A DNA stretch of 64,000 bases from a virus. The stretch spans positions 18,751 through 82,750 of IMG/VR virus record IMGVR_UViG_3300049491_000350, one strand, 5' to 3'. A program made the position numbers and the translations under genes. Positions within the stretch are counted from its first letter, which is position 1; each line of letters opens with the position of its first letter. Below, one piece after another: positions 26,699 to 64,000 of this stretch. A model generated the notes under the pieces. That model had not been told where the DNA came from. It searched no databases and worked only from the letters and a program-made list of their open reading frames with translations.

Positions 26699-29600
26699 AT
26701 GGACGAGAAATTACAAAGCATATACGACTTTATGAAAAGTCAGGGAGTTGAAGGGCTTCCTGAATTTCAACAGTTCAAAACTGACTTTGCTGCTAACCCG
26801 GAGACACAGAGAAGCACCCTTGATTTTATGAAATCAAAAGGGGTTGAAGGGTTGCCTGATATAGGCCAGTTCTCTAATGACATCGGCGTAAAAAAAAAAG
26901 ATGGTGGCACAGATTTATCAAATGGGGATTCTATGGAGGGTACTCAAAAGGATACTGCTACATCGGGGTCAGAAGAATCAGGAAGTAATACCTTTGATTT
27001 TTACAAGGCTATTGACCCGATGGGTTTTATGAGAGGAGGGCTTGAGCTTGATTACGATGGCGTGAAAATACCTGTTACATCTTTTGATATACCACAGCCA
27101 CCTGACAGCCGACCATACCCTGAAAGGCTTGGGCAATTCGATACAGGCGAATACAACAAAGCATTTGTTGGCGAAATACAAAACTACCTTACGGATGATA
27201 AGTACATAGGTTCTCCTGAAAGGCAAAAAGCGCAGGAATATGTACAAAACATCAGATTGAAAAATGCGTACAGGAATGACGCATTTTCTTTTAGCGATGT
27301 GAGCATGGCGGAAGCGCAGCGTTTTGCAGACAGGTACGGAGTGGAGCTTGGCACTGAACTTAACGGCGATTACTTTCAGAAAGTAAAAGCGTTAAAGGAT
27401 AAGGTGAACGCAGATACAAAAGAGCAATACACAGAGCATCGTGTTCAAGGTAGAAGCGATTTGCCTTATGAGGTGTTTAATGACAATGGATATAAAAACG
27501 ATGCAGATAACAATACGATAAACAATTTATTTGAAAGGCTTTCTTCTAAGATGGCTGACAGGGGAACTGCTGACGATGCGAAAGATGTGGTGGTGCAGTA
27601 TGCAGACCAGCGCACAATATTTGAAAAGGGCATGGATTACGCAAGCCCGGTTTATGGTGCTGCCAGTTCTGCCGTAAACAACGCTTTGCTTTTTGGCTCA
27701 AAGAAAATAGATGCAAATTTCATAACAGGGTTGAACCAGCGAAAACTTGCAGACCCTGTTGAGTATGCAAGGATTGCAAAACAGATTGCTAACGGAGAGC
27801 CAGTTGCTTCCAATGATTACTTCCGGCTTACTAATGTAGGCTTGTCAATAAACAATTCTGATAACCTTGAAGGCCTTTCAACCGGGAAGCAAACTATTGA
27901 AGATTTCATCTCCAACCACAGGGGCATCATGCAGCAATCTTCCGACCTGCTCTTAAATACAAAAGATGTATTGAAGTCTGCTATTGCTGATGAGCTTGGC
28001 AGCAGGCTTGATGAAAAGGCAGAGAAGGAATCATTGCTTGGCAACAATGTAACAGGGTCGTATATGTACAGCGATGAAGAAATCAATGCGGCATTGCCAG
28101 CCGCACTTCAATCTATTGGCGTAAACAAGGATGACCCAAGAGTGGTTGATGCTATCAATTCAATCAAAGGAGACGAAGGATGGATGGTTGGCATGAATGG
28201 CGTTAAAAAGGGTGGGCTTGTACGTGAGCTATTTAAAGGTGCGGCACAACCTTTCAGGGGCATCGCTGCATGGGGCGATTCTTTTGGAAAGCCATTATCG
28301 CAGGAATACAACGAAGCCAAGAACCAGCAGTTAAGCACATATACGGAGCAACGGCCTGAATCAATGAAAGGAACAGTGCTTAATACATTGAGTGATGCGG
28401 TATATGGGTTAGGGCAGTTTGCATCGCAGGCAGGCCTTGCTTATGCAGGCGGCGAAATTGTTGGTGGCATTGGAGCTTTGGCAGGTGGTGTTGGCGAAGC
28501 TGGTGCTGCCGCAGCTACCGAAACTGCTGCCGCCAGAGGCGCATTGTCCGGGCTTGATGCTGCGGCAGAATCTATTGCCGCAGATGCAGTATCTGCTGGG
28601 AGCAAGATTGGAAACTACCTCCTGCGTAACCGTGAGGCTATATCAACATTTGCAACAGGCTATCTTCAATCATACGACAGCAACCTTAAAACAACTTTAC
28701 AGATGACAGAAGATGATGCTTCTGCAAAGTTGGGGGCGCAGTTCCTTGCTGCAATGGAGGGAGCAAGCGAATTGATTTTACCTGATGTTAAATTAGGCCG
28801 TGAAATAATAGGCGGTTTCAAAAAGGAAGCGATACCCGGACTTCTAAAAAACATTTCTGAAAATATTTTAAAAAAGGGAGTAGATAAAAATGCTTGGGCT
28901 AAAGTTGGTGAATATGCAGGCAAAAGATTATTGAGTGCAGCAGCCACTACCGGGCAGGAAATTGCGGAGGAAGAAATTACGCAGCTTGCAAATTATGCAA
29001 CTAACGTTGTGCTTAACCCTAAGCAGGCAGGCAACCGTGATTTAGGGGATGAATTATTTAAGACTGCTGTATCAACGGCGGTATCCATGTCTATACCAGC
29101 ATTCCTCCGTAGCGGCGGTGGCAACCATAATACAGGGCTTGATAATAATAAAGCTGCTCTTGTCCTTGCTTCTGCAAACCTGACAACCATTCAGGATTAC
29201 ATAAACACTGCCGTTAGTAAAGGCATGATGAACCCGGATGAGGCTTCTGCTAAAATGCAAATAGTTAACACGGCTCATTCTATTGCTTCTCAAATGCCAG
29301 CAAATAAGAATGACGGAACTAAAATGAATATAACTGAACGGGCAGAATATTTATACAGCAGGACAAAGGAGGCTGCTCTTGCAGATGCAATAACCAAAAC
29401 TACTGATGATGTTTTAAAAGAAAGGTACAAGAAGGAAATAGCCGAGGAACAGGCTTTAAGAAAAGGCCTTATTGAGAAAACAGAAACAAGGTTTGATGGC
29501 AAATACCTTTCTGATAAAGAGCGCAATATTTTTGTCAATAAGCAATCAGAGCTTGCACGGATTGATACACGGCTGGCTGAAAACCCGGATGATAAAACAC

Positions 29601-32600
29601 TGGTGCGCCAGCGCAATTCTTTGCGTTCCGATATTTACCGCATACGTGATGGCAATTACTTCGGCGCAGTAAATAATATATCAAGGCGTATGGGTGTCCA
29701 GTACAATGGCATGGAGAGGGATGAGTACAACCGGGTAGTAGAACCTGCGGCTAATAATGCTGGCAGGTTTTCAACGTTCAATATAAAAGATGGCGATGAA
29801 ATTGTTTTGCCAAACAATGAGAAGATGACTGTCGTTAGCGCAGATGAAAACAGGATAGTAATGGATGATGGCTCTGGCAAAAACGATTTGATTTTTGACG
29901 GCAAATCAGAATTTGAAAATGTTTTTATACCTACCTTTTTTTCTGGCAACAAACAGTTTGCCCAGCTTAACCCAACTATACATGCACAGGCTGTACAGTT
30001 CAGGAAGAAACTGCTTAATGAGCCTAACGCTGACGTACATAATATTGCTGTTAATTATGTACGGAACAATGGCATTGCCAACGATATTGATACAAGGCCA
30101 GTTACTTCCCTTAACGAAAAAGAATCTGCGGATAGAGCCAAAAGATTTGAGCAGGTTGTACATGCGCCAAAGGAGAAGGCTACAATAGATTCATACGAAG
30201 CCCTTAAAAAAGAAACGCTTGCACAATGGAATGCGATTACGGATGCAGGTTATAACCTTGAGCTATGGAGTGGCAAGGGAGAGCCTTATTCTTCTTCTAA
30301 GGCAATGACCGATGACGTTAGGGAGAATAAACATTTATGGATACTGCCTACACTGAATGAGTTTGGCAGCAATGAAGATTTTGATGCCAGCGAAAACCCA
30401 TTGCTTGAAAAGACAGGCATGGTTGCCAGTGGCATGGAGCTTACTTATAACGATGTGTTCCGGGGCGTACATGATTTCTTTGGCCATGCCCATATTGGAA
30501 ACCAGTTTGGTGCTATTGGTGAGGAGAACGCATGGAGGTCTCACTCTCAAATGTATTCCCCTCTGGCAAGGAAAGCTATGACGATGGAGACCCGGATGCA
30601 AAACTCATGGGTGAATTTCAGTGGAGAGAATGTTGCAGCATTGAACTTGTTCAAAGAAGCTGCAACGCTGGAAAAACAGTCAAAGGATAAGAGCGGCAAT
30701 ATTATTGACCGTGATAAATATGAGCAGTCTATTGCGCTTAAAAAGGAAGCACAGTTGAAATTTAAGTTTGCAGACCAGAAGGTAGCTGTGGCATCCGATG
30801 AAGATGTGCAGATGAGAGGTGCTTACGATAATGTACAGGAAGGGCTTGACCAGCCATCAAGTATAACCCAATACAAGAAAGGTGAAACTGTTTCACTTGC
30901 AGACTTACAAAACGAGTGGCCTGTAACTAACGAAGGGATGGTTGATATGTTCCAGTGGGGCAAGTCTCAAGATGTACAGATTGGATTCCGGGCAATGCGC
31001 CAGACCGATGGCATTGCCTTTTACAATCCTTTAAGCGATGAGATATACTTCAACGTTAGCCATCCTGAATTTAAGAGCCTGACAGTTGCAGATACACAGG
31101 AGTTCTTGGCACATGAGCTTATCCATAAAGCTGCCCACTATTCTTTTGAAAACAACCCGGAGCTTGCTGGTGAGTTCAATAAGGATGCAGGCAAGGTGAT
31201 TGCCTTCTTGAAGCAGCAGGATATAACCAAACTTGATGCCACCACACAGAAGTACATCTCGTTCATGCTTGAAGATAACGCAGACCCACAAGAGCTTATC
31301 ACGTATGGTATGACTAATCCTTATATAGCGCAATGGTTTGCATCTCTTGAATACAATGCCAGCGAACAGGGGCAAAAAAGCGGTAGCGTATGGCAGTGGA
31401 TGAAAGAAAAAATATTACGCTTTGTAAGCAATATAGTTAAAGGTAAAAGCGTTTTAGATGAGACAGCCAGACTGCTTGATAAATATGTGAAGTTTGGGCT
31501 TCAAACAAGAATGAGTGAACGTGAACAATTGCATAGCCAGATATTAGAACAGTTGAATAACTCAACTGTTCCCGACACTATGAAGATTGGCATTCGCAGT
31601 GCGCCAGCAGAAGATGTAATCAATTTCATTTACGAACAGGCTACCAATACTACTAACGCAGATGGGCAATTGTATAGCGGCAGGGAAGCTCTTGAGCAGC
31701 AGTTTGGAAAGGAACTTGTTGATAGGGTAGTTGATTATAAGCAGCGTGAAATATCTGCACCACTGGCTGCTAACAAACCTCTGGAAGGCAAACCTGAAAG
31801 GCTCGACAATGAAAGCGCATTTGATTATGCCAAGAGGGTACGTGAATGGTACAACAAAGCAAGGCAGGACAAAGAGCTTGATTCAAAAGACAGGCGCAAG
31901 GCGCAGGTTGAATCCATAGAGGAACGTGATTACCTTGCCCACATACGGGATGGGGTAGCCCTGTTGAAAATCAATGCAGGCATAAGCATAGAAGATTTCA
32001 ACAAGCAATTGAATATCCCTGCGGATAATCTTGAGACCTATATAGCATCGCTGCAACAGTTGACAGAAGATAAAGAGGATGCTGCTGCAAACAAAAATGC
32101 GAAGGCTGTACTTGATGCTTTGCGCCAGCAATACCCGGAGAGGGTAACTATGACAGAGGTAGAGCTTCTCCGTAAGCAATACAATGCCTACAACAATGGA
32201 TACCGCAAGGCAATGAATACTGCCAGAAAAAACCTGTCTAAGGCTACCAAAGAGTTCAACGAAAATTATAAACTGCTAAAGGCATACAAGAATGCAGAGC
32301 GGCAGCAGATGGCTGCTGACCTTAAAGGTAAATCTGCGGCTGAAAGAAACGAGTTGATAAAAAAGAAAAATGAGGAACGCAGGCAAAAAGTCTTAGCTCT
32401 TAAAGATAAGATGGAGCAGGCGAAGAAAGATTATGAGCAGAAGGTTGCTGACATCAAAGACAGGAATAAATACTTCCGAGATAAGGTTGCTGATATTCTT
32501 ACTGACCTGTACAAGTCTGGCGCACTGAAAGGAGTAACATTCACTGAACAAGAATTATTGCAACTTGCCGCTACTGCTGGCAACGTATATACGAACAAGA

Positions 32601-35600
32601 CATTTAAAAAACTGCAACAGGTAATAGACAAGCTGATAAACAAAGCTGACTATTATAATAAACTTACTGATGCAAGGAAAGCCCAGAGAGAAGCAAAGCG
32701 TATAGTTAAGAGCGGCGTGGTTACACAGAATGACATAGCTGTTATTAAAGAACTAACTGGCATGAATGTGTCTGACGTAACTGATTTGGATAAGTACCTA
32801 AGCATACTGAAAGACTTTAACGACAGCAGGGTTGTAAAGACTTCGCCTATTCGCCAGTACACTAACGATGCTATATCTGATTTCATTACAACAGAAAAAG
32901 ACGCACAGCTTGGCAATTACAGGCAGGAGATAAAAGACGAAATGGATGACCTTAAATCATCTCTCGATTATACTGTTGCATCTCAAACAGTTTCCATTAC
33001 TGCGCCAGATGGAGTTGATATTGAAAAAGAAATAAACGGCATTATCGCTTCCAATGAAATGTCTTTTGGTGAAAAGAGAAAAGCGATTGGCGAAATTGAC
33101 AATGCTGTTGCTGGCCTGTCATCAAAAATAAGTGAGACCCTTGACGGCATCAATACAGATGCCATTGTATTTGACGATATAAGGAACTCTGCTGACGATA
33201 CAACCTCTCCACAACACGAAGGGCTGATTACTGCGCTTGAAGATGTGATGGCTGCACAGCAGGCTATAATTGATTTAGACGACACTTCCCTGACAGATGA
33301 ACAACGGTATAAATTAAAAGTATTGAAAGATGTGGTGCTTGACGGCATGGATGCAAATGAGCTTCGTTTGTTTTCCAATGTTCTTAATAATTACATTGAC
33401 AACAATGACGATAGCGGATTTGATTATATCGAATCAATTTATCTGGCACAGGAGAGCGTAAGGGAAATGACAGACTACATGCTGGATAACCATATTGTTT
33501 TAAAGGACAACGCATACGATGGAAAGGTGCTGGGTAAAACATTTGAATCGCTGTCAAGCGTGGAGCAGGTGTTCCTTCACATAGCAAACTCTGGTGCAGT
33601 GTTCACATCAAAGTTATTTAATTGGGCTGGCGTAAACAAGTTTCAACAGCAGGCGCAAAAAGCGTACAATCATTATCGTGAACAATTTCAAACACCACTT
33701 GAGGAGATATTGAACAGGAACAAAAAGGAAATGGATATACATGCCAATACCCGGATGCAGGTGTTCAGCATATTAAACCAGTCTATTCAAAATTCCAGCT
33801 TATTGGAAAAGAATAAAGAGTTGCTGAAAAGGATTGATGAAATGTATTCTGATATTGGCATAAAGCGTCAGGGCAATAATCAGGAAAAGGCCGAAGCTGA
33901 AATAGAATACGCACAAGTTGAATCCCTTCGCTTGCTTGTTGCAGACAGGGCAGGTATTGATTGGGCAGATGCAGACCAGCGCAAGCTGCTTACTAAAGAA
34001 ATCTTTGATAATTCAACTGGCGAATATTTAGACCCAGCAGAGAAAGAGGTGTACGCACTGGTTCAGAAATTCTATGGCGATACCAAGCAGACATTCCAGC
34101 AGACAATGAACGGATTACTGAATGAGAAGTTTGAGGCTTGGGATAATTACAGCCCTGATTCATTCAGGAATCTTAATGGCGGCGTAGTTGCAGTGGATGA
34201 GAACTCATGGAAGGGTTCAGCATTTGCTGCTCAACAGAACGGGTACACGCTTACTGGCGGAGCAACAAACCAGCGTGTCAAGGGAAACAGGGTGCGGCTT
34301 GCAAAGGTTGGCGATAACCAGAGGGTGTTCAGGATGGATTATCTTGGCCTCAATGGTAAGAACATAATGTCTATGCTGCATGACGTGTACACTGCTAAAG
34401 AGCGCATGGTTATGTATAACGTATTGAAGTCAGAGGACTTCATCAAAAACGTTGGAACATCGAACCATGAGACGATGAAGAAAACAATTACTCGCCACGT
34501 AAACAATGAGGTTGGATTACAGAAGCTGGAACAGGATGCGGTTAGTAAGAATATAAGGGCTGTTGCAAATGAAGTTGGGCAACTTGCCACCAAGCGTCAG
34601 CTATATTCATTCTCTGCATTCGTTAAGCAAAGCATATCCGCATACTCAAATACGGCAGTGTACATGGCATTGAACGGCAGCATGGATTCTTTTCTTGAAG
34701 GTGTACGTGCTGCGGCAAATGACTTGGATGCAAATGAATTGCTGCATGGCCAGCAGGTAGGAAGGAGGGGAGAGACAAAGGCAGGCCTCAATATCTTTAA
34801 TGATTTCAATAAAGAGAAAGAGCTTGCAGCGCAGGATAAAGATAAATCTGTTTTCAAAAAATACTACGACAAGGTGGTGCATGGTGAAAACAAATACACT
34901 GGCGAAAGGGCAAAGCGTATGGGGTACTTCATTGAGAAGGGCGATGTGGTTGCCGCCAGAGGTTCTTGGCTTGCCTATTACGCACAACACCTTGTTAAGA
35001 ATGGCGTGGTTACAAACGCTTCTGATATTGATTGGGCTAACGAGAACCAGAACCCTAATCAGGAGGCTGTGTCATACGCACAGATAATGACCAGTAATGC
35101 AATGAACGTAAATGCAAACTCATCACGCAGCGAATTTCAGCAAAGCACTTCTGGTGGTCTGGTGTTTGTTAAGGCGATGCTTGCTGCATTCAGTTCATTC
35201 CAATTTAATAAAAGCGTCAGCCTGTTCAACAACTTGCGCTCCCTATCTAAAGGAAGCTATGCCACTATTCTTGATTCTAATGGGCAGGAGCAAATCATTA
35301 AGGCATCGGAAGAACAGCGCAAAGATGAAATCAATACATCTTACAAAACATTACTGGCATCGCTATCCGAAGAAATGATTTTCAATGCAGCGAAGCTGGG
35401 CATAGGGTACACGCTGTATAAAACAATTCCATTCCTGCTTGGCTCACTGTTTGGAGGAGACGATGATGAAACAAAAAAGAGAAAGAAAATAATCAGCCAA
35501 GAAGGGGAGCAATCTTATTGGGATAACGCAGGCATTAAATGGTGGACAAATGTATTCAATGGGTTTGCGTTATCAATAATACCAGACATCGCACAGAAGC

Positions 35601-36211
35601 AATTGAACTCCGGGGTTAACGAAATCGCTAAGGCTTCTGGCGGAGATAAAATATTTTACGAACCGAAACAAAAAAGCGGACAGTCATCACTAATGGGTTC
35701 ATTTCAGGCAGCAGCACAAGATGTGCCAGAGGACGTATCGAGGCTGTACGAATATTTATTTAAGCACACAGCCAGCGATGGAAGCCCTGTTACTGTGTCA
35801 AGCAAAGACAAAGGGATGGCATTGCTGGGCTTATTGAGCGATGGTGCAGGCTTTACTGGATATGGAGACGCAGACCTTAACAGGGTGCTACATGCCCACA
35901 TCAAACAGGCGCAGGTAGATAACGATGCAAATTTCAAGAAGCCTTATACTATCCTTATGAACGACCCGGACAAGGGGCGTGTGGTAACAGTGAACAAAGA
36001 GAAGATAGAATTGACTGATGACCAGACCGATTTCTTTAATGATAAAAGGAAGGAGTATTTTGACAAGATGCCTAAGACTGTCATAGACGCAATGGATAAA
36101 AACGAGACCGTTAAGCAACGAATGAATACAGCCGCCACTACGTTTGCGAAAGCTGCAACCATGCTCAAGTATGGGGAGCAGATACGGGAAGCCATAAAGA
36201 AAGCGAAGTAA
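26699..36211 (+). CDS. Giant internal virion / polyvalent protein (3170 aa) with zincin-like motifs
   Basis: Duplicated N-terminal DFMKS.GVEGLP unit, Gly/Ala-rich hydrophobic segment, VHDFFGH...GEENAW motif, HELIH (HExxH)...QELITYGMTNP, long coiled coils. Confidence 0.7.
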   Translation: MDEKLQSIYDFMKSQGVEGLPEFQQFKTDFAANPETQRSTLDFMKSKGVEGLPDIGQFSNDIGVKKKDGGTDLSNGDSMEGTQKDTATSGSEESGSNTFDFYKAIDPMGFMRGGLELDYDGVKIPVTSFDIPQPPDSRPYPERLGQFDTGEYNKAFVGEIQNYLTDDKYIGSPERQKAQEYVQNIRLKNAYRNDAFSFSDVSMAEAQRFADRYGVELGTELNGDYFQKVKALKDKVNADTKEQYTEHRVQGRSDLPYEVFNDNGYKNDADNNTINNLFERLSSKMADRGTADDAKDVVVQYADQRTIFEKGMDYASPVYGAASSAVNNALLFGSKKIDANFITGLNQRKLADPVEYARIAKQIANGEPVASNDYFRLTNVGLSINNSDNLEGLSTGKQTIEDFISNHRGIMQQSSDLLLNTKDVLKSAIADELGSRLDEKAEKESLLGNNVTGSYMYSDEEINAALPAALQSIGVNKDDPRVVDAINSIKGDEGWMVGMNGVKKGGLVRELFKGAAQPFRGIAAWGDSFGKPLSQEYNEAKNQQLSTYTEQRPESMKGTVLNTLSDAVYGLGQFASQAGLAYAGGEIVGGIGALAGGVGEAGAAAATETAAARGALSGLDAAAESIAADAVSAGSKIGNYLLRNREAISTFATGYLQSYDSNLKTTLQMTEDDASAKLGAQFLAAMEGASELILPDVKLGREIIGGFKKEAIPGLLKNISENILKKGVDKNAWAKVGEYAGKRLLSAAATTGQEIAEEEITQLANYATNVVLNPKQAGNRDLGDELFKTAVSTAVSMSIPAFLRSGGGNHNTGLDNNKAALVLASANLTTIQDYINTAVSKGMMNPDEASAKMQIVNTAHSIASQMPANKNDGTKMNITERAEYLYSRTKEAALADAITKTTDDVLKERYKKEIAEEQALRKGLIEKTETRFDGKYLSDKERNIFVNKQSELARIDTRLAENPDDKTLVRQRNSLRSDIYRIRDGNYFGAVNNISRRMGVQYNGMERDEYNRVVEPAANNAGRFSTFNIKDGDEIVLPNNEKMTVVSADENRIVMDDGSGKNDLIFDGKSEFENVFIPTFFSGNKQFAQLNPTIHAQAVQFRKKLLNEPNADVHNIAVNYVRNNGIANDIDTRPVTSLNEKESADRAKRFEQVVHAPKEKATIDSYEALKKETLAQWNAITDAGYNLELWSGKGEPYSSSKAMTDDVRENKHLWILPTLNEFGSNEDFDASENPLLEKTGMVASGMELTYNDVFRGVHDFFGHAHIGNQFGAIGEENAWRSHSQMYSPLARKAMTMETRMQNSWVNFSGENVAALNLFKEAATLEKQSKDKSGNIIDRDKYEQSIALKKEAQLKFKFADQKVAVASDEDVQMRGAYDNVQEGLDQPSSITQYKKGETVSLADLQNEWPVTNEGMVDMFQWGKSQDVQIGFRAMRQTDGIAFYNPLSDEIYFNVSHPEFKSLTVADTQEFLAHELIHKAAHYSFENNPELAGEFNKDAGKVIAFLKQQDITKLDATTQKYISFMLEDNADPQELITYGMTNPYIAQWFASLEYNASEQGQKSGSVWQWMKEKILRFVSNIVKGKSVLDETARLLDKYVKFGLQTRMSEREQLHSQILEQLNNSTVPDTMKIGIRSAPAEDVINFIYEQATNTTNADGQLYSGREALEQQFGKELVDRVVDYKQREISAPLAANKPLEGKPERLDNESAFDYAKRVREWYNKARQDKELDSKDRRKAQVESIEERDYLAHIRDGVALLKINAGISIEDFNKQLNIPADNLETYIASLQQLTEDKEDAAANKNAKAVLDALRQQYPERVTMTEVELLRKQYNAYNNGYRKAMNTARKNLSKATKEFNENYKLLKAYKNAERQQMAADLKGKSAAERNELIKKKNEERRQKVLALKDKMEQAKKDYEQKVADIKDRNKYFRDKVADILTDLYKSGALKGVTFTEQELLQLAATAGNVYTNKTFKKLQQVIDKLINKADYYNKLTDARKAQREAKRIVKSGVVTQNDIAVIKELTGMNVSDVTDLDKYLSILKDFNDSRVVKTSPIRQYTNDAISDFITTEKDAQLGNYRQEIKDEMDDLKSSLDYTVASQTVSITAPDGVDIEKEINGIIASNEMSFGEKRKAIGEIDNAVAGLSSKISETLDGINTDAIVFDDIRNSADDTTSPQHEGLITALEDVMAAQQAIIDLDDTSLTDEQRYKLKVLKDVVLDGMDANELRLFSNVLNNYIDNNDDSGFDYIESIYLAQESVREMTDYMLDNHIVLKDNAYDGKVLGKTFESLSSVEQVFLHIANSGAVFTSKLFNWAGVNKFQQQAQKAYNHYREQFQTPLEEILNRNKKEMDIHANTRMQVFSILNQSIQNSSLLEKNKELLKRIDEMYSDIGIKRQGNNQEKAEAEIEYAQVESLRLLVADRAGIDWADADQRKLLTKEIFDNSTGEYLDPAEKEVYALVQKFYGDTKQTFQQTMNGLLNEKFEAWDNYSPDSFRNLNGGVVAVDENSWKGSAFAAQQNGYTLTGGATNQRVKGNRVRLAKVGDNQRVFRMDYLGLNGKNIMSMLHDVYTAKERMVMYNVLKSEDFIKNVGTSNHETMKKTITRHVNNEVGLQKLEQDAVSKNIRAVANEVGQLATKRQLYSFSAFVKQSISAYSNTAVYMALNGSMDSFLEGVRAAANDLDANELLHGQQVGRRGETKAGLNIFNDFNKEKELAAQDKDKSVFKKYYDKVVHGENKYTGERAKRMGYFIEKGDVVAARGSWLAYYAQHLVKNGVVTNASDIDWANENQNPNQEAVSYAQIMTSNAMNVNANSSRSEFQQSTSGGLVFVKAMLAAFSSFQFNKSVSLFNNLRSLSKGSYATILDSNGQEQIIKASEEQRKDEINTSYKTLLASLSEEMIFNAAKLGIGYTLYKTIPFLLGSLFGGDDDETKKRKKIISQEGEQSYWDNAGIKWWTNVFNGFALSIIPDIAQKQLNSGVNEIAKASGGDKIFYEPKQKSGQSSLMGSFQAAAQDVPEDVSRLYEYLFKHTASDGSPVTVSSKDKGMALLGLLSDGAGFTGYGDADLNRVLHAHIKQAQVDNDANFKKPYTILMNDPDKGRVVTVNKEKIELTDDQTDFFNDKRKEYFDKMPKTVIDAMDKNETVKQRMNTAATTFAKAATMLKYGEQIREAIKKAK

Positions 36212-57483: not shown

Positions 57484-58344
57484 TTATTTTTGATTTGGTT
57501 TTAATTCAGTAAGAGACCATCCATCTTTGAAAGTAGCATCGCTTTCAATTTCCATGTCAATAAGAATATCAAGCAACTCCGGGTCATTGTCTGCGCCGTT
57601 CTGCAAGTCATTGAGAGAGCCAAGCACACAGAATTTGCATGACACCCTATCGTTGCCATAAGCGTAAGCAGGGTGAAAATCCCACCAGTTAGGAACTATG
57701 CCATTTTGCTTATACAGCCGCCTTGCCAAAGCCAGAGTTTCAATAGTTTGATTTTTGGTAGCCAGCACGTTTTCCAGAGTGAAATTAAATATGGGATACC
57801 AGTTCAAAAACAGTTTGTACTTAGGCTTATAATTAAGCAAGGCTTCCTCAACAGTCATGCCTTTATAGTAACTGGACGAGTTGCTTCTTATTGATAGAGC
57901 CTGCTTCTTAGCACGTTGTTTACTTTCATCAGACCGTATCCCTTCGCAACTGATAATAAGCGATTCGTTGGTACTGGTGAAGAAAACATTTATCGGCGCA
58001 CGTTTCAAATCGCTGGTGCAGTACCGGGCATTTGATGAACTCCAAAACGGCTTGCCAGTTCCTTGCAGCATTCTCATCCTGCGCTGCCAGTATTCAAGCA
58101 AACCAAGCCCATCCTTCCTTTTAATAACGTGCAAGGGTATATCATACTCATCAGAGCATTTTTGGCACTGTGGCAAACTTTCAGCCCATTCAACCCTGCC
58201 GAGGTCGGCATGTACAAGCCCAGCTATTGAAAACTTATTAGCCACAAGAGCCTGCACCATAGCATCGCCATCCTTGCCACCAGACACGGAGGCGTATAGC
58301 TTTGCGCCTTTCGATTGAGCCAGCCTTATTAACTCTGTTGACAT
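57484..58344 (-). CDS. PAPS reductase-family (PP-loop) protein
   Basis: SVSGGKDG PP-loop, RYCTSDLK..PI, GIRSDES..RAK, HPAY..G..RVSCKFC. Confidence 0.85.
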   Translation of the reverse strand: MSTELIRLAQSKGAKLYASVSGGKDGDAMVQALVANKFSIAGLVHADLGRVEWAESLPQCQKCSDEYDIPLHVIKRKDGLGLLEYWQRRMRMLQGTGKPFWSSSNARYCTSDLKRAPINVFFTSTNESLIISCEGIRSDESKQRAKKQALSIRSNSSSYYKGMTVEEALLNYKPKYKLFLNWYPIFNFTLENVLATKNQTIETLALARRLYKQNGIVPNWWDFHPAYAYGNDRVSCKFCVLGSLNDLQNGADNDPELLDILIDMEIESDATFKDGWSLTELKPNQK

Positions 58345-58484
58345 TGTGTATCCTTTTTAATTTCGCCAGCATTCGATGAATTGCTTTTTGCATTCACAGA
58401 ATAGCTGACTGTGATAACTGCCTTTTGATAACGCTTTACCATGTTTTTAAAGTAGGTAAGTTCCTTTCTTTCTTCTCTTGTCAT
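58329..58484 (-). CDS. Small hypothetical protein (true start MTREERK at 58484)
   Basis: The ORF-track N-terminal extension is translated ribozyme/leader; this ATG lies 44 nt after the cleavage site. Confidence 0.55.
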   Translation of the reverse strand: MTREERKELTYFKNMVKRYQKAVITVSYSVNAKSNSSNAGEIKKDTQCQQS

Positions 58485-58522
58485 CGTTTGTATGTGCCTG
58501 TTATAGTCTGCACCTGACTTTT

Positions 58523-58574
58523 GATTAAGACTGGCTTGCGCCAGTTTCGCCGCATGACGGCTCATCAGTTAATC
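58523..58574 (-). ncRNA. Type I hammerhead ribozyme HH-A
   Basis: GAUUAA CUGAUGA GCCG ucaug CGGC GAAA CUGGC gcaa GCCAG UC^ UUAAUC; cleavage between 58529 and 58528. Confidence 0.93.
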
Positions 58575-58799
58575 TTAATTAAATTCCAGTTTGTTATTCT
58601 CTGGGTTAAAATACCTTTTAGTTTCGCCACGCAATACGCCGCCTCTGTCTTTCATTGATGCAGTTATTAAATACCTTCCATCAGGCTGCTTCTTAACAGA
58701 GAAGCTACTCATGGTTTGCCCAAAAAATTTCAATGTCTCTTTAGTAAAAAAGAACGGTGCTGTTTCTTTTGTCGCTTCTTTGATTTGATAAATTGTCAT
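58575..58799 (-). CDS. Hypothetical early protein
   Basis: 74 aa (APFFFTKETLKFFGQTM); flanked by two hammerheads. Confidence 0.7.
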   Translation of the reverse strand: MTIYQIKEATKETAPFFFTKETLKFFGQTMSSFSVKKQPDGRYLITASMKDRGGVLRGETKRYFNPENNKLEFN

Positions 58800-58837
58800 C
58801 GTTTATGAGTGCCTGTTATAGACTGCACCTGTCTTTT

Positions 58838-58892
58838 GGTTAAGACTGGCATTGCTGCCAGTTTCGGCTATTGAAGCCATCGTCAGTTAACC
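58838..58892 (-). ncRNA. Type I hammerhead ribozyme HH-B (CUGACGA core with extra U)
   Basis: GGUUAA CUGACGA u GGCU ucaau AGCC GAAA CUGGCA gcaa UGCCAG UC^ UUAACC. Confidence 0.88.
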
Positions 58893-59555
58893 TTTTACGG
58901 GGTAAACAAAGCGAATATTATGACCCCATTTGCGTTTGCTATAATCTTCGCCAGATTCATGGAACGAGAAAGTAAAGCCTGCAACATTATCGGAAAGAAG
59001 GCTGTTATTGAACTGGTGTATAATGCTTTTATGTTGTTCTGACCAGTCAATAGTTTTATCGTTTTCATTTATCCAGCCAATTTCCTTACCGTATGAAGTG
59101 AAAACAATAGTGTTAATCAAATCAACCTTAATAGCAATCAAACCTTTGGATATTACAAACGGGTTGCCAATGATAATGCAGTTAAGCGTTTCTGCACCTC
59201 TCCAATTGTTTACGCTTTTGCCAGACTGAATAATGTCAGCAAGTTCCTCCACTGGCATATCATAATGCGAAGCCATGCCTGCAATGCTTATCCAGTTATT
59301 TACAAATTCAATGTAAACCCTCTCTGGCTTTACAGTCCTGATATTCTGTTTGGTTATCTTGTTAGCTTCCTTTTCATCTACATTTTCAAATGTAGAGACA
59401 TTGAACTGGTGAAGCAATTTATTGTCAGTGCGCCTGTATATTGAAAAGATTCCAGCAGTTTCAATACCATAGTTGTAAGTCCTCCGCTTGCCTTTGTAGT
59501 AAGCGTAACGTTCTTTGTTTGAACGGATAATTATTTCCTGTATTTTCTTGTCCAT
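58887..59555 (-). CDS. Hypothetical early protein
   Basis: 222 aa; ends GGT TAA inside HH-B stem I. Confidence 0.7.
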   Translation of the reverse strand: MDKKIQEIIIRSNKERYAYYKGKRRTYNYGIETAGIFSIYRRTDNKLLHQFNVSTFENVDEKEANKITKQNIRTVKPERVYIEFVNNWISIAGMASHYDMPVEELADIIQSGKSVNNWRGAETLNCIIIGNPFVISKGLIAIKVDLINTIVFTSYGKEIGWINENDKTIDWSEQHKSIIHQFNNSLLSDNVAGFTFSFHESGEDYSKRKWGHNIRFVYPVKG

Positions 59556-59562
59556 TTTGTTT

Positions 59563-59590
59563 GAGTGCCTGTTATAGACTGCACCTGTCT
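59563..59590 (-). repeat. Leader-only copy of the array repeat (no ribozyme)
   Basis: AGACaggtgcaGTCTataacaggcactc directly after the upstream TAA. Confidence 0.85.
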
Positions 59591-60157
59591 TTAGTTTTTA
59601 AAATATTTTACAAAGTATTCTCTGGCTGCTTTTTTGTATTCATCCTCACCACTTTCAAAGTCGCTAACCATCATCGCCAGAGATTCACATTCTGGAGATT
59701 TGCACCAGCCCATTTGAAACTCATTGTACTTTTCAAAGTATTCTTTGTCAGTATCACCCGGCTTTAATGTTATAAAGCCAAGCAGAGACACAAGCGATTC
59801 TATACTGTCCTGTGCAAACATTGTAGATGGCTTAAAGTCTATGCCTTCAAACAATATCTCATCACCTAAGCATACAGTATAGTCAACTTTTTCTCCACCA
59901 ATGTAAACAAGGTAAGCAGAGAGGTTAAGGTCAGGAATCTCTAAGCCACAAAGAAAGTTGTCATCATCCATTATAAATTCCTTTACAGATTCAATTGCAT
60001 CTTCAAACTCAATCCTTGTTTTAGGAGTTCTTTTATGTCCAAATTCTTTGAACAAATCCCATGCAACAGATTCACTTCTTTCATCAATCTGCGTAGTGTC
60101 AATCACCTTATCATTTCCATTAAGGTAAGTAACATTGTAAACGGTTCTATGTTTCAT
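59591..60157 (-). CDS. Hypothetical early protein (true start MKHR at 60157)
   Basis: Acidic; SLLGFITLKPGDTDKEYFEKY; ATG 44 nt after the HH-C cleavage site. Confidence 0.7.
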   Translation of the reverse strand: MKHRTVYNVTYLNGNDKVIDTTQIDERSESVAWDLFKEFGHKRTPKTRIEFEDAIESVKEFIMDDDNFLCGLEIPDLNLSAYLVYIGGEKVDYTVCLGDEILFEGIDFKPSTMFAQDSIESLVSLLGFITLKPGDTDKEYFEKYNEFQMGWCKSPECESLAMMVSDFESGEDEYKKAAREYFVKYFKN

Positions 60158-60195
60158 GCGTTGTATGTGCCTGTTATAGTCTGCACCTGACTTTT

Positions 60196-60247
60196 GATTA
60201 AGACTGGCTTGCGCCAGTTTCGCCGCATGACGGCTCATCAGTTAACC
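60196..60247 (-). ncRNA. Type I hammerhead ribozyme HH-C
   Basis: GGUUAA CUGAUGA GCCG ucaug CGGC GAAA CUGGC gcaa GCCAG UC^ UUAAUC (G-U pair in stem I). Confidence 0.93.
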
Positions 60248-60796
60248 TTCCTTCTCATCAGTGTGAGGGAAAAACCTGCCATCTCTGGTAAAATAATATT
60301 CGTTTATTATGATAGTTTCCTTTACTGATTCTTCCCCGGTAAGGTAGTCGTATTCATTGCTTAATATAGTAAGGTAGTCTCCTGCAATTTCTTCTTTGAA
60401 CTCATCATCAATAGTATCAACTTCATTGTCAAAATCATACTCATTCTCTGGTGTAACAGTAGTTTTATCTGTGCCATCAGAATACTTTTCAACCAGAGCA
60501 TTGTATGCCAGCCTATGCTTCATTGCAGTTTTGTATGTGTCGCAACTTTCGCCATGCTCTTTAATAATAAGGTCAACAGTGTCAGATGCTGTATTTGACA
60601 GGACAATGCTGCAAAACCTACCTCTATCAATATCAAACCCATTAATCTTAATGCCAACATTTTCAGCATCTGAATAGATGTTTTCATACCATCTGTCATC
60701 TACATTTATGTTTGCAAAATGATTCATTGCAACCTCTTTCGCTTTGTCGTTAAGTTCTTCAAACTTGAAAACTTTTGTTCTTATTGTTTTACTCAT
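60242..60796 (-). CDS. Acidic hypothetical early protein (true start MSKT at 60796)
   Basis: VFKFEELNDKAKEVA...EYDYLTGEESVKETIIINEYYFTRDG, a pattern I recognise from a widespread uncharacterised phage/plasmid family. Confidence 0.7.
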   Translation of the reverse strand: MSKTIRTKVFKFEELNDKAKEVAMNHFANINVDDRWYENIYSDAENVGIKINGFDIDRGRFCSIVLSNTASDTVDLIIKEHGESCDTYKTAMKHRLAYNALVEKYSDGTDKTTVTPENEYDFDNEVDTIDDEFKEEIAGDYLTILSNEYDYLTGEESVKETIIINEYYFTRDGRFFPHTDEKEG

Positions 60797-60835
60797 AACA
60801 TTATTGCAGCCTGTTATAGTGTGCGCCTCACTTTT

Positions 60836-60895
60836 GGTTAATACGCTGCTGCAATTACAGCAGCGTTTCAGGTATTGAACCCTCATCAGTTAACC
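60836..60895 (-). ncRNA. Type I hammerhead ribozyme HH-D (GUA cleavage triplet)
   Basis: GGUUAA CUGAUGA GGGU ucaau ACCU GAAA CGCUGCUG uaauug CAGCAGCG UA^ UUAACC. Confidence 0.88.
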
Positions 60896-61308
60896 TCGCC
60901 GTCTTTTTTGAAGCATAACTTTCCGTAAGCAGATGCAATATTGAAAAAGTGCGTTTCCTCGGTAGGGTGTATTGTAATTTCAGTTAAACTTTTACCGGGA
61001 GTGCCAATTTTAATACTGTCAACAGTAATGTAAGAACGCTTTGAATATTCTGAAATAGCCTGCTTTAACAATACAGCATAATCATTTGGAAGGTGCATAG
61101 TTGCAGGCTTAGTCCATATCGCTTTTTCTTTTTCCTGACCATGCTGCATTCCCATTTCAAAAATATCTGTTTGAGAAAAATCTCCGTTATCCGTTACGGA
61201 TATTTTGCCGTCATTAATTTCAGTTTCGCAAGCCAGATGGTTTTCAAGAAATTCCTTTGCGCCATCAGCGTTTTTGCCTAACTGTCTTTGGTCTAATAAT
61301 ATTTTCAT
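60886..61308 (-). CDS. Hypothetical early protein
   Basis: 140 aa; its TGA stop is the UGA of the HH-D catalytic core. Confidence 0.7.
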   Translation of the reverse strand: MKILLDQRQLGKNADGAKEFLENHLACETEINDGKISVTDNGDFSQTDIFEMGMQHGQEKEKAIWTKPATMHLPNDYAVLLKQAISEYSKRSYITVDSIKIGTPGKSLTEITIHPTEETHFFNIASAYGKLCFKKDGEVN

Positions 61309-61346
61309 ACACTATGTGTGCCTGTTATAGTCTGCACCTGACTTTT

Positions 61347-61400
61347 GATTAAGACTGGCATTGCTGCCAGTTTCGGGTACTGAACCCTCATCAGTTAATC
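61347..61400 (-). ncRNA. Type I hammerhead ribozyme HH-E
   Basis: GAUUAA CUGAUGA GGGU ucagu ACCC GAAA CUGGCA gcaa UGCCAG UC^ UUAAUC. Confidence 0.93.
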
Positions 61401-61655
61401 TTCCCACATCATTTGCTCTAATGTATCATAATCAGCATCTGGCTTTACAAAGTGCAGGCAGTCTATAATGTGGCAGTCAGTTCCTTCTTCACAGCCAGTA
61501 TAGTTTGTTATTGCCTGCATGTATATTTCAGGAACGTTTGGAATGCCTTTGTAAGGGCAATGTTGAAACGGGCAGCAATGCCCTGCTATTTCGATTTTAT
61601 TACAGCCAGCCAGCATAATGCAGGCAACTATAATGATTTTAATTTTGCTTCTCAT
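61395..61655 (-). CDS. Putative Cys-rich lipoprotein
   Basis: Probable start MRSKIKIIIVACIMLAG|C (lipobox); ends GAT TAA in HH-E stem I. Confidence 0.55.
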   Translation of the reverse strand: MRSKIKIIIVACIMLAGCNKIEIAGHCCPFQHCPYKGIPNVPEIYMQAITNYTGCEEGTDCHIIDCLHFVKPDADYDTLEQMMWED

Positions 61656-61962
61656 TTTCGATGTTGGTTTTATTTGTGTTATACTCATCAGTTGTAATTA
61701 ACCCCATGTCAAAATTGTCCTGATTCTCTTTAAGCCTTGCAGCTTTGTTCCCATCTGCTTCTGCTTTTTGCATTGCTACATATAAGTCAGCAATTTCTGC
61801 CATGCGTTTAAGTTCCTTCCGGGCAATCTCTTTTCCTTTTTCGTTGCCATCTTGCAATACAGTAAGGTAGTAAGGCAGAATGCCTACCCATGTTGGGGTG
61901 CAATCAATAACCCCAACAACCTTGCCTTTAATAACAGTTGTTTCTTGTTTTTTACTTTTCAT
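61639..61962 (-). CDS. Hypothetical early protein
   Basis: 107 aa; TPTWVGILP...ARKELKRMAEIAD. Confidence 0.7.
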   Translation of the reverse strand: MKSKKQETTVIKGKVVGVIDCTPTWVGILPYYLTVLQDGNEKGKEIARKELKRMAEIADLYVAMQKAEADGNKAARLKENQDNFDMGLITTDEYNTNKTNIENEKQN

Positions 61963-62004
61963 CGTTTATGAGTGCCTGTTATAGACTGCACCTGTCTTTT
62001 GGTT
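61963..62004 (-). repeat. Leader-only copy of the array repeat (no ribozyme)
   Basis: aaccaaaagacaggtgcagtctataacaggcactcataaacg-ATG, identical to the HH-B leader through the start codon. Confidence 0.88.
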
Positions 62005-62288
62005 TAATATTTTAATTCAGAAGTAATGTATCTGCATTCTTTTTCCAGCATTGAAATAAGAGATTCAAGTTGCCTTTCTTTTCTTTCAGCCAGCCTATAT
62101 AGCTCATCGGATTCATTAAACATTGAAAGGGTTAAATAGTGTCCTGCATTGTTATTGTACAAACCTTCGGCTAAAAGAATGCAGTCAATTACATGCTGGA
62201 AAAACTGTACAGCATTGCCATTTATTTCATCTTCATAAATGAATGCTCTGTTAAAAGCCTCCATCTGTATTTTTATTACTGACAACAT
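62004..62288 (-). CDS. Hypothetical early protein
   Basis: 94 aa; ATG 45 nt after the HH-F cleavage site. Confidence 0.65.
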   Translation of the reverse strand: MLSVIKIQMEAFNRAFIYEDEINGNAVQFFQHVIDCILLAEGLYNNNAGHYLTLSMFNESDELYRLAERKERQLESLISMLEKECRYITSELKY

Positions 62289-62327
62289 ATATTTTCAGCA
62301 GCCTGTTATAGTGTGCGCCTCACTTTT

Positions 62328-62387
62328 GGTTAAGACACTGCTGCAATGCCAGCAGTGTTTCGCCGTTTCACGGCTCATCAGTTAACC
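62328..62387 (-). ncRNA. Type I hammerhead ribozyme HH-F
   Basis: GGUUAA CUGAUGA GCCG ugaaa CGGC GAAA CACUGCUG gcauug CAGCAGUG UC^ UUAACC. Confidence 0.93.
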
Positions 62388-63338
62388 TTTTTTATTCCAG
62401 CCTAACAAGCCAGCAATGTATTCAATTTCGCTTACTGGTATGTGATGGCAACCCACTTCCAAAACGTCTTTAGTAGCTTTATTAACGTTGTATTCCAGCA
62501 TCTTGAAATTGCAATCTCCATCACAGCCGCCAGCAGCAACTATTCTGTTATAAAAGGCATAGTAACGCTTTGCAACATCGGTAGGAATATCTACCCCTTT
62601 GAATGTATTAACAACGTTACCGGATAGGCGCAAATAGGTTGTATTTTCATACCTTACTTGATTATAGTAAAACTCAAAATTTGTTTTCATTGCGCCTTTT
62701 ATAGATTCGGAAAACTCTGTTTTTGATTGCCCACTTTTCCAGCTATCAATAAACGATTGAAATACCTTTTTGCCAGCCTTCATCTTTTTGTCAAACGCTT
62801 TTGCTTGTGCAATCTTTTCTGCCTCCGCCGCCTTGTTTGCTTTGTCCATTGCCTCTTTAAATTCGCCAGCATTTGAAAAGCTAATTTCAGCCTGTTGTTT
62901 TGCCGATATTTCAATATTAAAAAATGCAGTGTATTTATTCAATAGTTCTTTTTGTGCATCTATTTGAGCCATGTAAATGGCAGGCTTACGAGCCGTTGTT
63001 AATTTGTTCTTTGCAATTGATACAATGTTAAAAATAAAGGAGGCAACATTGTTTGCATGGTAATTCCTTGCTGCCTCATCAGGATTCATGCAGTAGATTA
63101 TATCAAGATGAGACACTGCACTTTTTACCAGAGAGATATGACCGGAAGTTGTATTGCTGTAAGTACGTGTTGTAAACAATACAATGCCATTGTAATGGAC
63201 TGCAATAGGGAAGTGCCTGCCATAGCTGTAAATGGTATCACCATCGAAATAAAAATTGCCATGTGCAACCCTGCCTTCATCCTGCACTTTGTTTGCCCAA
63301 AAATGTGCAACCTGATTTGTTCCTAATATTCTTTTCAT
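62382..63338 (-). CDS. Hypothetical early protein
   Basis: 318 aa; VAHFWAN...IYSYGRHFPIA...YSNTTSGH...VGCHHI, a conserved-looking uncharacterised phage family. Confidence 0.75.
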   Translation of the reverse strand: MKRILGTNQVAHFWANKVQDEGRVAHGNFYFDGDTIYSYGRHFPIAVHYNGIVLFTTRTYSNTTSGHISLVKSAVSHLDIIYCMNPDEAARNYHANNVASFIFNIVSIAKNKLTTARKPAIYMAQIDAQKELLNKYTAFFNIEISAKQQAEISFSNAGEFKEAMDKANKAAEAEKIAQAKAFDKKMKAGKKVFQSFIDSWKSGQSKTEFSESIKGAMKTNFEFYYNQVRYENTTYLRLSGNVVNTFKGVDIPTDVAKRYYAFYNRIVAAGGCDGDCNFKMLEYNVNKATKDVLEVGCHHIPVSEIEYIAGLLGWNKKG

Positions 63339-63376
63339 AATTGTTGTGCGCCTGTTATAGTCTGCGGCTGACTTTT

Positions 63377-63436
63377 GGTTAAGACACTACTGCAATGCCA
63401 GCAGTGTTTCGCCGTTTCACGGCTCATCAGTTAACC
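63377..63436 (-). ncRNA. Type I hammerhead ribozyme HH-G
   Basis: GGUUAA CUGAUGA GCCG ugaaa CGGC GAAA CACUGCUG gcauug CAGUAGUG UC^ UUAACC. Confidence 0.93.
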
Positions 63437-63706
63437 TTTAATTTCTTCTCTCATTCTTTTAATCATTTGCAGTTCTGTATTAATGCAGCGTACATGGTGA
63501 AGCGTATAAATTTCGCCATGCAGCCATCCATTGCCGTTAGTAGCTTCCTTAACATCATTTAAAAATGATTCGGTTTGTTTAATAGCTCTCGTCATGTAAG
63601 CCTTTTTGCTTGCAATTGTTTTGTAGTCGCTAAGAATTTCGAGAGTGATTTTTTTTGTTTCACTTAGCGGAGTGATACGAGCTAAGTAGTTTTTAGAAGT
63701 TGACAT
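63431..63706 (-). CDS. Hypothetical early protein (first gene of the array)
   Basis: 91 aa; ends GGT TAA in HH-G stem I. Confidence 0.65.
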   Translation of the reverse strand: MSTSKNYLARITPLSETKKITLEILSDYKTIASKKAYMTRAIKQTESFLNDVKEATNGNGWLHGEIYTLHHVRCINTELQMIKRMREEIKG

Positions 63707-63713
63707 ATTTTTT

Positions 63714-63748
63714 GCCCGTCTGTTATAGTCTGCGGCTGACTGTTATAT
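63714..63748 (-). repeat. Leader-only copy at the head of the array
   Basis: tataacAGTCagccgcaGACTataacagacgggc upstream of the ATG at 63706. Confidence 0.8.
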
Positions 63749-63897
63749 TAAGAAAAAACACATATCAAATAGAGTGCGTTCCCTGAATCCGATATGCAAT
63801 ATTAGGACTATTCTTTTAATCAAACAATAAAAAGTTATCCACATAGCAGCAAAGCCACACATTTGCGCCAGCCACCTTATCAAACAAAAGGAGTGCA

Positions 63898-63975
63898 GAG
63901 CAGCCAGCATAGCAGCAGCCAGCGTAGCCAGTAGCATCAGCAGCAGGCAGGCAGCAGCCTGCCAGCAGCAGCAGT
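63898..63975. repeat. GC-rich degenerate (CAG/CCAG/GCAG)n low-complexity tract
   Basis: cagccagcatagcagcagccagcgtagccagtagcatcagcagcaggcaggcagcagcc... Confidence 0.7.
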
Positions 63976-64000
63976 TCCCCGGCAATCGTTCCGGGCAATC

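Follow-up and report, generated by a model that had tools for sequence, protein, structure and literature searches.

The right end of the virus record IMGVR_UViG_3300049491_000350 raises the question of whether a phage can divide one long messenger RNA into several short ones by means of ribozymes encoded at the junctions between its genes. The stretch analysed here, referred to as the window, covers positions 18,751 to 82,750 of that record and forms the final 64 kb (64,000 nucleotides) of an 82,750-bp IMG/VR genome recovered from a freshwater-sediment metagenome. On its minus strand, a block of small genes contains seven type I hammerhead motifs, numbered HH7 to HH1 from the right end inward (Table 1), and an earlier note, made from the sequence alone, had proposed that they process the transcript of an early operon. 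Comparison with related sequences supports the view that the seven elements are genuine hammerhead-class motifs under selection at the RNA level, and it brings in an obligatory partner element that the earlier note omitted, a pseudoknot leader. A long leftward transcript that cleaves itself into mRNAs of one to three genes, each headed by such a leader, is in our opinion the probable reading of this arrangement.

Reading each copy bears out the seven minus-strand positions and the type I topology proposed before, and all seven lie on the gene strand, in the sense orientation. Each follows the order GRUUAA - CUGAYGA - stem II hairpin - GAAA - stem III hairpin - U-H - UUAAYC, with an open stem I of 6 bp. 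The invariant core positions (C3 U4 G5 A6, G8 A9, G12 A13 A14 and A15.1-U16.1) are present in every copy, H17 is an allowed nucleotide throughout (C in six copies, A in one), and the G10.1-C11.1 pair is found in six. The conservation of the core that had been claimed thus stands for the invariant positions and requires qualification in two copies: HH2 carries one extra U between A9 and stem II (an insertion in the alignment to the covariance model R2 described below), and HH4 has a G10.1-U11.1 wobble together with a GUA cleavage site.

The pattern CTGANGA..CGAAAC occurs six times where 0.09 occurrences would be expected, HH4 escaping it solely through a U for C at position 11.1, and a stricter core pattern finds all seven copies and nothing further in the genome. 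The covariance model R2 was built from 15 external metagenomic sequences only, with no window sequence among them; searched against the 82.75-kb genome, it retrieves exactly the seven array copies, at 58-73 bits and with rough E-values of about 1e-12 to 1e-15, and the next match scores 14.9 bits. When the seven copies are aligned with the 15 external ones, which had been retained only if their stems II and III were paired, standard pairs fill 98.6% of the pair cells of these 22 sequences, against 25-37% with slid partners; compensatory changes occur at 9 of the 16 pairs, and doubly changed cells number 86, compared with 25.7 in shuffles. Pairs changed on both sides amount to three of four in stem II and five of six in stem III but to one of six in stem I, so that the covariation previously claimed for all three stems holds for stems II and III, whereas stem I barely varies; the stem variants quoted at the time are correct in the array copies. 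Since an invariant core is combined with compensatory stem changes across unrelated contigs, selection appears to have acted on the RNA fold, not on DNA identity alone. The three-way junction is also the minimum-free-energy fold of six of the seven isolated units, HH3, whose stem I includes one G-U pair, being predicted to fold without stem I.

Several points nevertheless weigh against reading the array as a set of efficiently self-cleaving junctions. The seeds of R2 were collected with a pattern taken from the window copies and filtered for paired stems, and the model is therefore not fully independent. With 40-50 nt of flanking sequence, four of the seven copies keep all three stems in the predicted fold and three lose stem I, which is just 6 bp long and AU-rich. 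The Rfam hammerhead models, a search that the earlier note had suggested, give no match in the window at the gathering score: the best scores for RF03152 are 34.8 bits (HH6) and 28.6 bits against a gathering score of 56.3, the type III family Hammerhead_3 (RF00008) reaches 20.3 bits against 48.5, and the Rfam type I hammerhead family is not matched in the window. These families have the same catalytic core and three-way junction, but their models expect other architectures of stem I and loops. A tertiary contact between stem I and loop II is not demonstrable, for the related sequences keep a UUNAAU loop II and a 3' AAAAG tail whose invariance leaves no covariation to show pairing, and HH1, HH3, HH6 and HH7 lack this typical loop. 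The core insertion of HH2 and the wobble of HH4 count in the same direction, cleavage at cellular Mg2+ may be slow, and no promoter for the block was located. The missing Rfam match and the short stem I would equally suit a reading of the motifs as inactive relics or chance look-alikes, which is hardly tenable in view of the six pattern matches, the intact cores in seven of seven copies, the compensatory stem changes and a 40-bit gap above the best background match.

The array copies have relatives elsewhere. Pattern scans of IMG/VR, JGI/ENA metagenomes and GTDB genomes gave 38 distinct matches and one further match in a Niabella genome, the only bacterial genome to match the ribozyme pattern among 185,579 species representatives; R2 found no match in 150 other sampled Bacteroidota genomes. 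In the true look-alikes, on about 16 distinct contigs, the AAAAG tail recurs, stem II has 4 bp and a closing G-C pair, loop II is UUNAAU-like and stem III varies freely; stem I is fixed as GRUUAA/UUAAYC across the whole group, single-copy phages included. Save for one tRNA, no gathering-level Rfam match was obtained at 16 related loci. Because the external copies, too, fall below the Rfam gathering score, the array copies are, on the evidence of their sequences, members of an uncatalogued and widespread subfamily of type I hammerheads that current models miss. The copy in the Niabella sp. metagenome-assembled genome (L261:7805-7866, minus strand) has behind it a leader of another kind, a small hairpin or pseudoknot-like element, and an AUG about 40 nt downstream. 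Two or three copies occur on a few metagenome contigs: three on L147 (172-265, 2555-2628 and 4229-4300), and two each on L142 (5203-5257 and 5490-5544) and L152 (5702-5756 and 5979-6033), the latter pairs about 290 nt apart and without the pseudoknot leader.

A search for the same architecture in related phages, likewise suggested earlier, showed instead that each of the five other phage records with the subfamily, including a 100%-complete 74-kb genome, has one copy. Within the array, about 105 nt of the HH1 and HH3 units agree almost completely, and the copies have stems II and III in common in a mosaic fashion. Single copies elsewhere, this near-identity and the mosaic stems point to local amplification, and the seven-copy array with its ten leaders is accordingly best described, from sequence comparison, as a lineage-specific amplification of one module. 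The same three facts would be expected if the module were mainly a spreading DNA repeat, used as a homology joint for the shuffling of accessory-gene cassettes, with RNA cleavage secondary or inherited. In T4-type phages, repeats of promoters and stem-loops act as homology joints of this kind; outside the present phage the leader is nearly always linked to a single gene family, and assembly unitigs end at the array repeats. The combination of invariant core and compensatory stems across unrelated contigs, expected of selection on an RNA fold, makes this account improbable as the principal one, although the DNA-repeat and RNA-processing readings could both hold at once.

Five nucleotides after each hammerhead begins a leader of the form A-GUC-AG-NNGC-A-GAC-U-AUAACAG-GCNN, and three more copies without a ribozyme bring the total to ten. 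From the end of its CUAUAACAGGC motif to the AUG there are 11 nt in nine of the ten leaders and 12 nt in one (62311); for the leader of HH4, the distance of 11 nt needs the annotated AUG at 60796, an out-of-frame AUG lying 7 nt past the CUAUAACAGGC motif. P1 is an AGUC/GACU-like hairpin, and in P2 its loop, NNGC, is paired with the downstream GCNN. Among 21 leaders from 12 contigs, collected with P1 pairing but not P2 pairing as a selection criterion, 92.9% of the P1 and P2 cells are paired, against 25-41% when slid; double changes affect two of four pairs in P1 and two of four in P2, and five unpaired cells accommodate P2 with one bulged base. In two contigs, G-U pairs of the leader are valid in the sense strand only. 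The covariation of P1 and P2 and these sense-only G-U pairs argue for an RNA pseudoknot, not a DNA promoter, and the leader is, judging from its pairing, a 26-nt H-type pseudoknot in the RNA of the 5' untranslated region (5' UTR).

This bears directly on the proposal that each gene forms its own transcription unit, in which the leader would be a DNA promoter and the hammerheads would trim read-through RNA as terminator substitutes or insulators. The leader does stand before ten genes with a fixed spacing to the AUG, the first one lies at the start of the block without a preceding ribozyme, the rest of the block yielded no promoter, and the hairpin-plus-UAUAA shape loosely recalls the hairpin promoters of virion RNA polymerases. 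However, P2 and a downstream segment change in concert, as they would in an RNA pseudoknot, and in the RAGATH-1 hammerheads discussed below this P1 scaffold belongs to the RNA; no convincing phage RNA polymerase motif (DxDxD-type) was found, and sigma-70-like matches in the leaders are antisense only, the leaders not having been scanned for the Bacteroidota promoter type. Separate units of this kind are, in our estimate, quite unlikely. A 3170-aa open reading frame (ORF) at 26699-36211 on the plus strand carries a zincin-like HExxH motif close to residue 1486; it gives a weak SprT-like match and lacks DxDxD.

On the plus strand (58496-63728), the reverse complement of the leader reads CTGTTATAGTC, an extended -10-like TGnTATAGT, and a -35-like hexamer is also present beside four CTGTTATAGTC copies, so that antisense promoters are formally possible; a role of the leader as an antisense promoter was judged secondary, the G-U pairs favouring sense RNA. 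A preQ1-I-like riboswitch has a similar type of fold and was likewise set aside, the second loop of the leader being 1 nt and no Rfam riboswitch matching it at E <=10.

Outside this phage, with or without a ribozyme, the leader is found almost always ahead of homologues of one array gene, that of an acidic 184-aa protein. Such homologues occur on at least 104 viral-contig stretches, and at the 80 loci kept the leader is present at only about five. At one locus (L089:5238-5332, minus strand) a type III hammerhead, with a loop-closed stem I, precedes the leader; the leader thus combines with different ribozyme topologies.

One close known counterpart of the module is RAGATH-1 (RF03152), also a type I hammerhead with a short stem I of 5-6 bp. 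Its hairpin, A-AGUC-A..A-GACU-AUAA (consensus AAguCAG...GacUAUAA), equals P1 of the leader, and in both cases the hairpin loop forms a pseudoknot. The arrangement is different: the RAGATH-1 hairpin is placed 5' of the ribozyme, adjoining stem I, and its loop pairs with 'loop II', whereas here the hairpin lies 3' of the ribozyme, its loop pairs with the GCNN just past the linker, and the ribozyme has its own stem II of 4-5 bp. RF03152 members with scores of 57-85 bits provided 13 distinct copies, and in all 13 the loop of the hairpin is complementary to the ribozyme 'loop II', by nine different covarying pairings, from which it follows that the pseudoknot in effect supplies the stem II of the hammerhead. 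Alignments to RF03152 showed no RAGATH-1 5' hairpin upstream of the window copies. Examples of RAGATH-1 among IMG/VR loci L268-L385 include L271:814-890, L275:1211-1295, L290:7047-7152 and L290:8202-8286, and such hammerheads occur in duplicate at loci L290 and L347.

Table 1. Features of the ribozyme array and its surroundings in window coordinates, from the right end inward (R2, score against the covariance model; cuts are predicted, given as the nucleotides on either side)
Feature	Position	Strand	Remarks
Right inverted terminal repeat copy	63874-64000		127 bp, perfect; other copy at genome 1-127
Eleven small same-strand ORFs (51-318 aa)	58329-63706	-	start about 270 nt inside the right inverted terminal repeat
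Leader 1, no hammerhead upstream	63716-63741	-	about 270 nt from genome end; precedes 91-aa ORF (63431-63706)
HH7, type I hammerhead	63377-63436	-	R2 62.9 bits; predicted cut 63383/63382, after C63383, new 5' end 63382; stem I UAA is stop of 91-aa ORF (63431-63706)
Leader after HH7	63348-63373	-	CUAUAACAGGC motif ends 11 nt before AUG 63338
HH6, type I hammerhead	62328-62387	-	R2 64.3 bits; predicted cut 62334/62333, new 5' end 62333; stem I UAA is stop of 318-aa ORF
Leader after HH6	62298-62324	-	P2 variant, 1-nt bulge
Leader without hammerhead	61972-61997	-	precedes 107-aa ORF
Lipoprotein-like ORF, 97 aa	61395-61688	-	..LAGC signal, Cys-rich; overlaps end of preceding ORF
HH5, type I hammerhead	61347-61400	-	R2 72.7 bits; predicted cut 61353/61352, new 5' end 61352; stem I UAA is stop of 97-aa lipoprotein-like ORF
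Leader after HH5	61318-61343	-	
HH4, type I hammerhead	60836-60895	-	R2 66.6 bits; predicted cut 60842/60841, new 5' end 60841; core UGA is stop of upstream 140-aa ORF
Leader after HH4	60806-60832	-	bulged P2 variant; precedes 184-aa gene 60242-60796
Acidic 184-aa protein gene	60242-60796	-	phrog_5162; without Pfam, PDB or PADLOC match
HH3, type I hammerhead	60196-60247	-	R2 58.3 bits; predicted cut 60202/60201, new 5' end 60201
Leader after HH3	60167-60192	-	
Leader without hammerhead	59565-59590	-	AAAATATTTT palindrome just upstream, 59600-59609
HH2, type I hammerhead	58838-58892	-	R2 68.6 bits; predicted cut 58844/58843, new 5' end 58843
Leader after HH2	58809-58834	-	
HH1, type I hammerhead, last of array	58523-58574	-	R2 60.6 bits; predicted cut 58529/58528, new 5' end 58528; upstream stop directly adjoins, 58575-58577
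Leader after HH1	58494-58519	-	heads part continuing into replication genes

The setting of the array explains why processing of a common transcript is favoured here. On the minus strand, genes run from the right end inward as a small-ORF block followed by primase, topoisomerase and other replication genes; plus-strand genes, the structural genes among them, span 0.6-65.5 kb of the genome. No terminator-like site on the minus strand falls at a gene junction of the array, the sole match in this stretch (61183-61200) sitting within an ORF. With the hammerheads in sense orientation, a block of small genes on one strand and no terminators at the junctions, self-cleavage into RNAs of one to three genes is the natural reading. 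The accessory-gene block at the right end of the linear genome would probably be transcribed leftward and early from near the inverted terminal repeat, its gene units separated by a repeated RNA module of about 90 nt, made up of a hammerhead against or overlapping the upstream stop and of the pseudoknot leader. During synthesis, each hammerhead would fold and cut after its GUC or GUA; the upstream RNA would keep the compact ribozyme body at its 3' end, with a 2',3'-cyclic phosphate, and the downstream RNA would begin with 5'-OH-UUAAYCAAAAG, followed by the pseudoknot. The products would be six internal RNAs of 315-1358 nt with one to three genes, a 5'-terminal piece and a 3' piece. The 5' ends and the fragment lengths computed previously (1049, 981, 511, 640, 1358 and 315 nt) are arithmetically correct, and the six units between ribozymes contain 1, 3, 1, 1, 2 and 1 genes. 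Every product RNA would gain one defined, context-independent 5' UTR, and the leader would most likely serve to make translation start or RNA stability uniform in a host that manages without Shine-Dalgarno pairing. Cleavage, the single long precursor, its early timing and the role of the leader are what we infer from the sequence of the locus.

The early polycistronic mRNA of phage T7 offers a parallel, being cut by host RNase III into mRNAs of single genes, with 5'-phosphate and 3'-OH ends. Common to both, on the reading proposed here, would be an early transcript from a genome end that is cut at structured intercistronic sites, whereas the cutting in the present phage would be protein-free and would leave 5'-OH and 2',3'-cyclic phosphate ends.

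The junctions are tighter than the purely intergenic placement first described, in that the upstream ORF ends inside the ribozyme in six of seven cases, its stop being a UAA of stem I in five and a UGA of the core in HH4, and the stop adjoins the ribozyme at HH1. The cleavage might for this reason be conditional, a ribosome terminating on a stop in stem I or the core holding the ribozyme unfolded, or slow variants might tune RNA levels. A stop codon also lies within the ribozyme in 5 of 19 external copies, the core variants of HH2 and HH4 and loop II of HH1, HH3, HH6 and HH7 suggest graded rates, and regulated cleavage has been raised for phage variants by Perreault et al. (PMC3088659). The overlap of stop and ribozyme is, however, not obligatory, many relatives having the stop a few codons upstream, and such tight packing may merely save space; conditional cleavage is therefore unlikely as the main account. 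Far less credible is that excised segments circularise or re-join, the 5' UUAAYC of a fragment re-pairing with its own 3' GRUUAA before ligation by the ribozyme or RtcB. The near-uniform stem I would let five of the six internal fragments close on themselves with no more than one G-U pair, but stem I is equally fixed in single-copy phages, so that its uniformity characterises the family and is no adaptation of the array, and circular or spliced products were sought by Perreault et al. and none were found (PMC3088659).

Arrays of ribozymes between phage genes are not without precedent, and the suggestion that they were undescribed has to be given up. Perreault et al. reported in 2011 that multiple hammerheads flank single genes or short gene blocks in prophages, and they observed complete cleavage of tandem phage hammerheads in vitro for three arrangements and in vivo for one (PMC3088659). 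A 2017 review restates these clusters (PMC6155905), and reviews continue to treat what hammerheads do in bacteria and phages as unsettled (PMC6765202, PMC6155905). By its sequence, the present array falls within the clustered phage hammerheads of 2011, sharing several sense-oriented hammerheads between small uncharacterised phage genes. It differs in that the tested cases comprised three ribozymes each in constructs of about 2 kb, against seven here in 4.9 kb, in that a single type I subfamily, its stem I fixed, accounts for all copies, and in that every copy is coupled to a pseudoknot leader. It is a clean, locally amplified example of known phage ribozyme clusters and not a new kind of system.

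A likeness of another sort exists with RiboJ, a hammerhead with a 23-nt hairpin that normalises 5' UTRs (PMC7536230). In both, a hammerhead and then a small stable structure stand ahead of the start codon, and cleavage yields, or here would yield, a uniform 5' UTR. RiboJ was engineered from a type III satellite-RNA ribozyme that stays on the downstream RNA, whereas the module described here is natural and of type I, would leave the ribozyme body on the upstream RNA, and has a pseudoknot in place of the hairpin. The likeness is an analogy of function and not one of membership.

The remainder of the genome seems to use another mark at its junctions. The palindrome AAAATATTTT has 25 occurrences against 0.44 expected (window 2015-57100, 25 sites; 59600-59609), mostly at gene junctions and often 0-8 nt ahead of an AUG. 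A single copy lies within the ribozyme array (59600-59609), at a junction with a leader but without a hammerhead. The phage thus seems to use two distinct junction signals, the ribozyme module and AAAATATTTT.

As to the phage itself, the perfect inverted terminal repeat, which contains many GCTGCTG-type repeats, suggests a linear genome with defined ends, yet the CheckV estimate of completeness is 65%. Shine-Dalgarno matches are present at 10 of 97 starts in the genome and start regions are A/U-rich, which fits a Bacteroidota-type host; together with the Niabella match, the weak use of Shine-Dalgarno sequences suggests, at the level of sequence, that the host is of this type. No array gene could be assigned a function by searches of Pfam, PHROGs and PADLOC or by a PDB profile search; the array had no blastn match among 50,697 phage records, and a search with the primase turned up no close relatives of the phage. 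Contigs from three DNA runs of two studies contained the same phage only, at 100% identity, with no natural variants.

Relative to the literature searched, what is new is the uncatalogued hammerhead subfamily, its local amplification to seven copies, and the union of a complete hammerhead with a RAGATH-1-type pseudoknot that stands alone and keeps a fixed spacing to the start codon. The locus shows that current Rfam thresholds overlook a widespread subfamily of type I hammerheads, and it is at the same time a compact, regular test bed, with seven ribozymes of one subfamily that carry natural core and loop variants, to which three leader-only junctions without a ribozyme add further value. It lets one ask whether ribozyme cutting standardises 5' UTRs as RiboJ does, and what role a RAGATH-type pseudoknot plays outside a ribozyme. 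More tentatively, as a possibility that we hold to be rather unlikely, the hammerhead and the RAGATH-1-type pseudoknot may together be a natural, transferable 'ribozyme insulator' cassette, in which the cut would strip off everything upstream and the pseudoknot, held about 9-11 nt ahead of the AUG, would set ribosome loading or RNA lifetime in a host without Shine-Dalgarno recognition. If this is true, the cassette would let one trans-acting factor or condition govern all ten leader-bearing early genes, and ribozyme junctions would be confined to the block expressed first, the other junctions of the phage using the AAAATATTTT palindrome.

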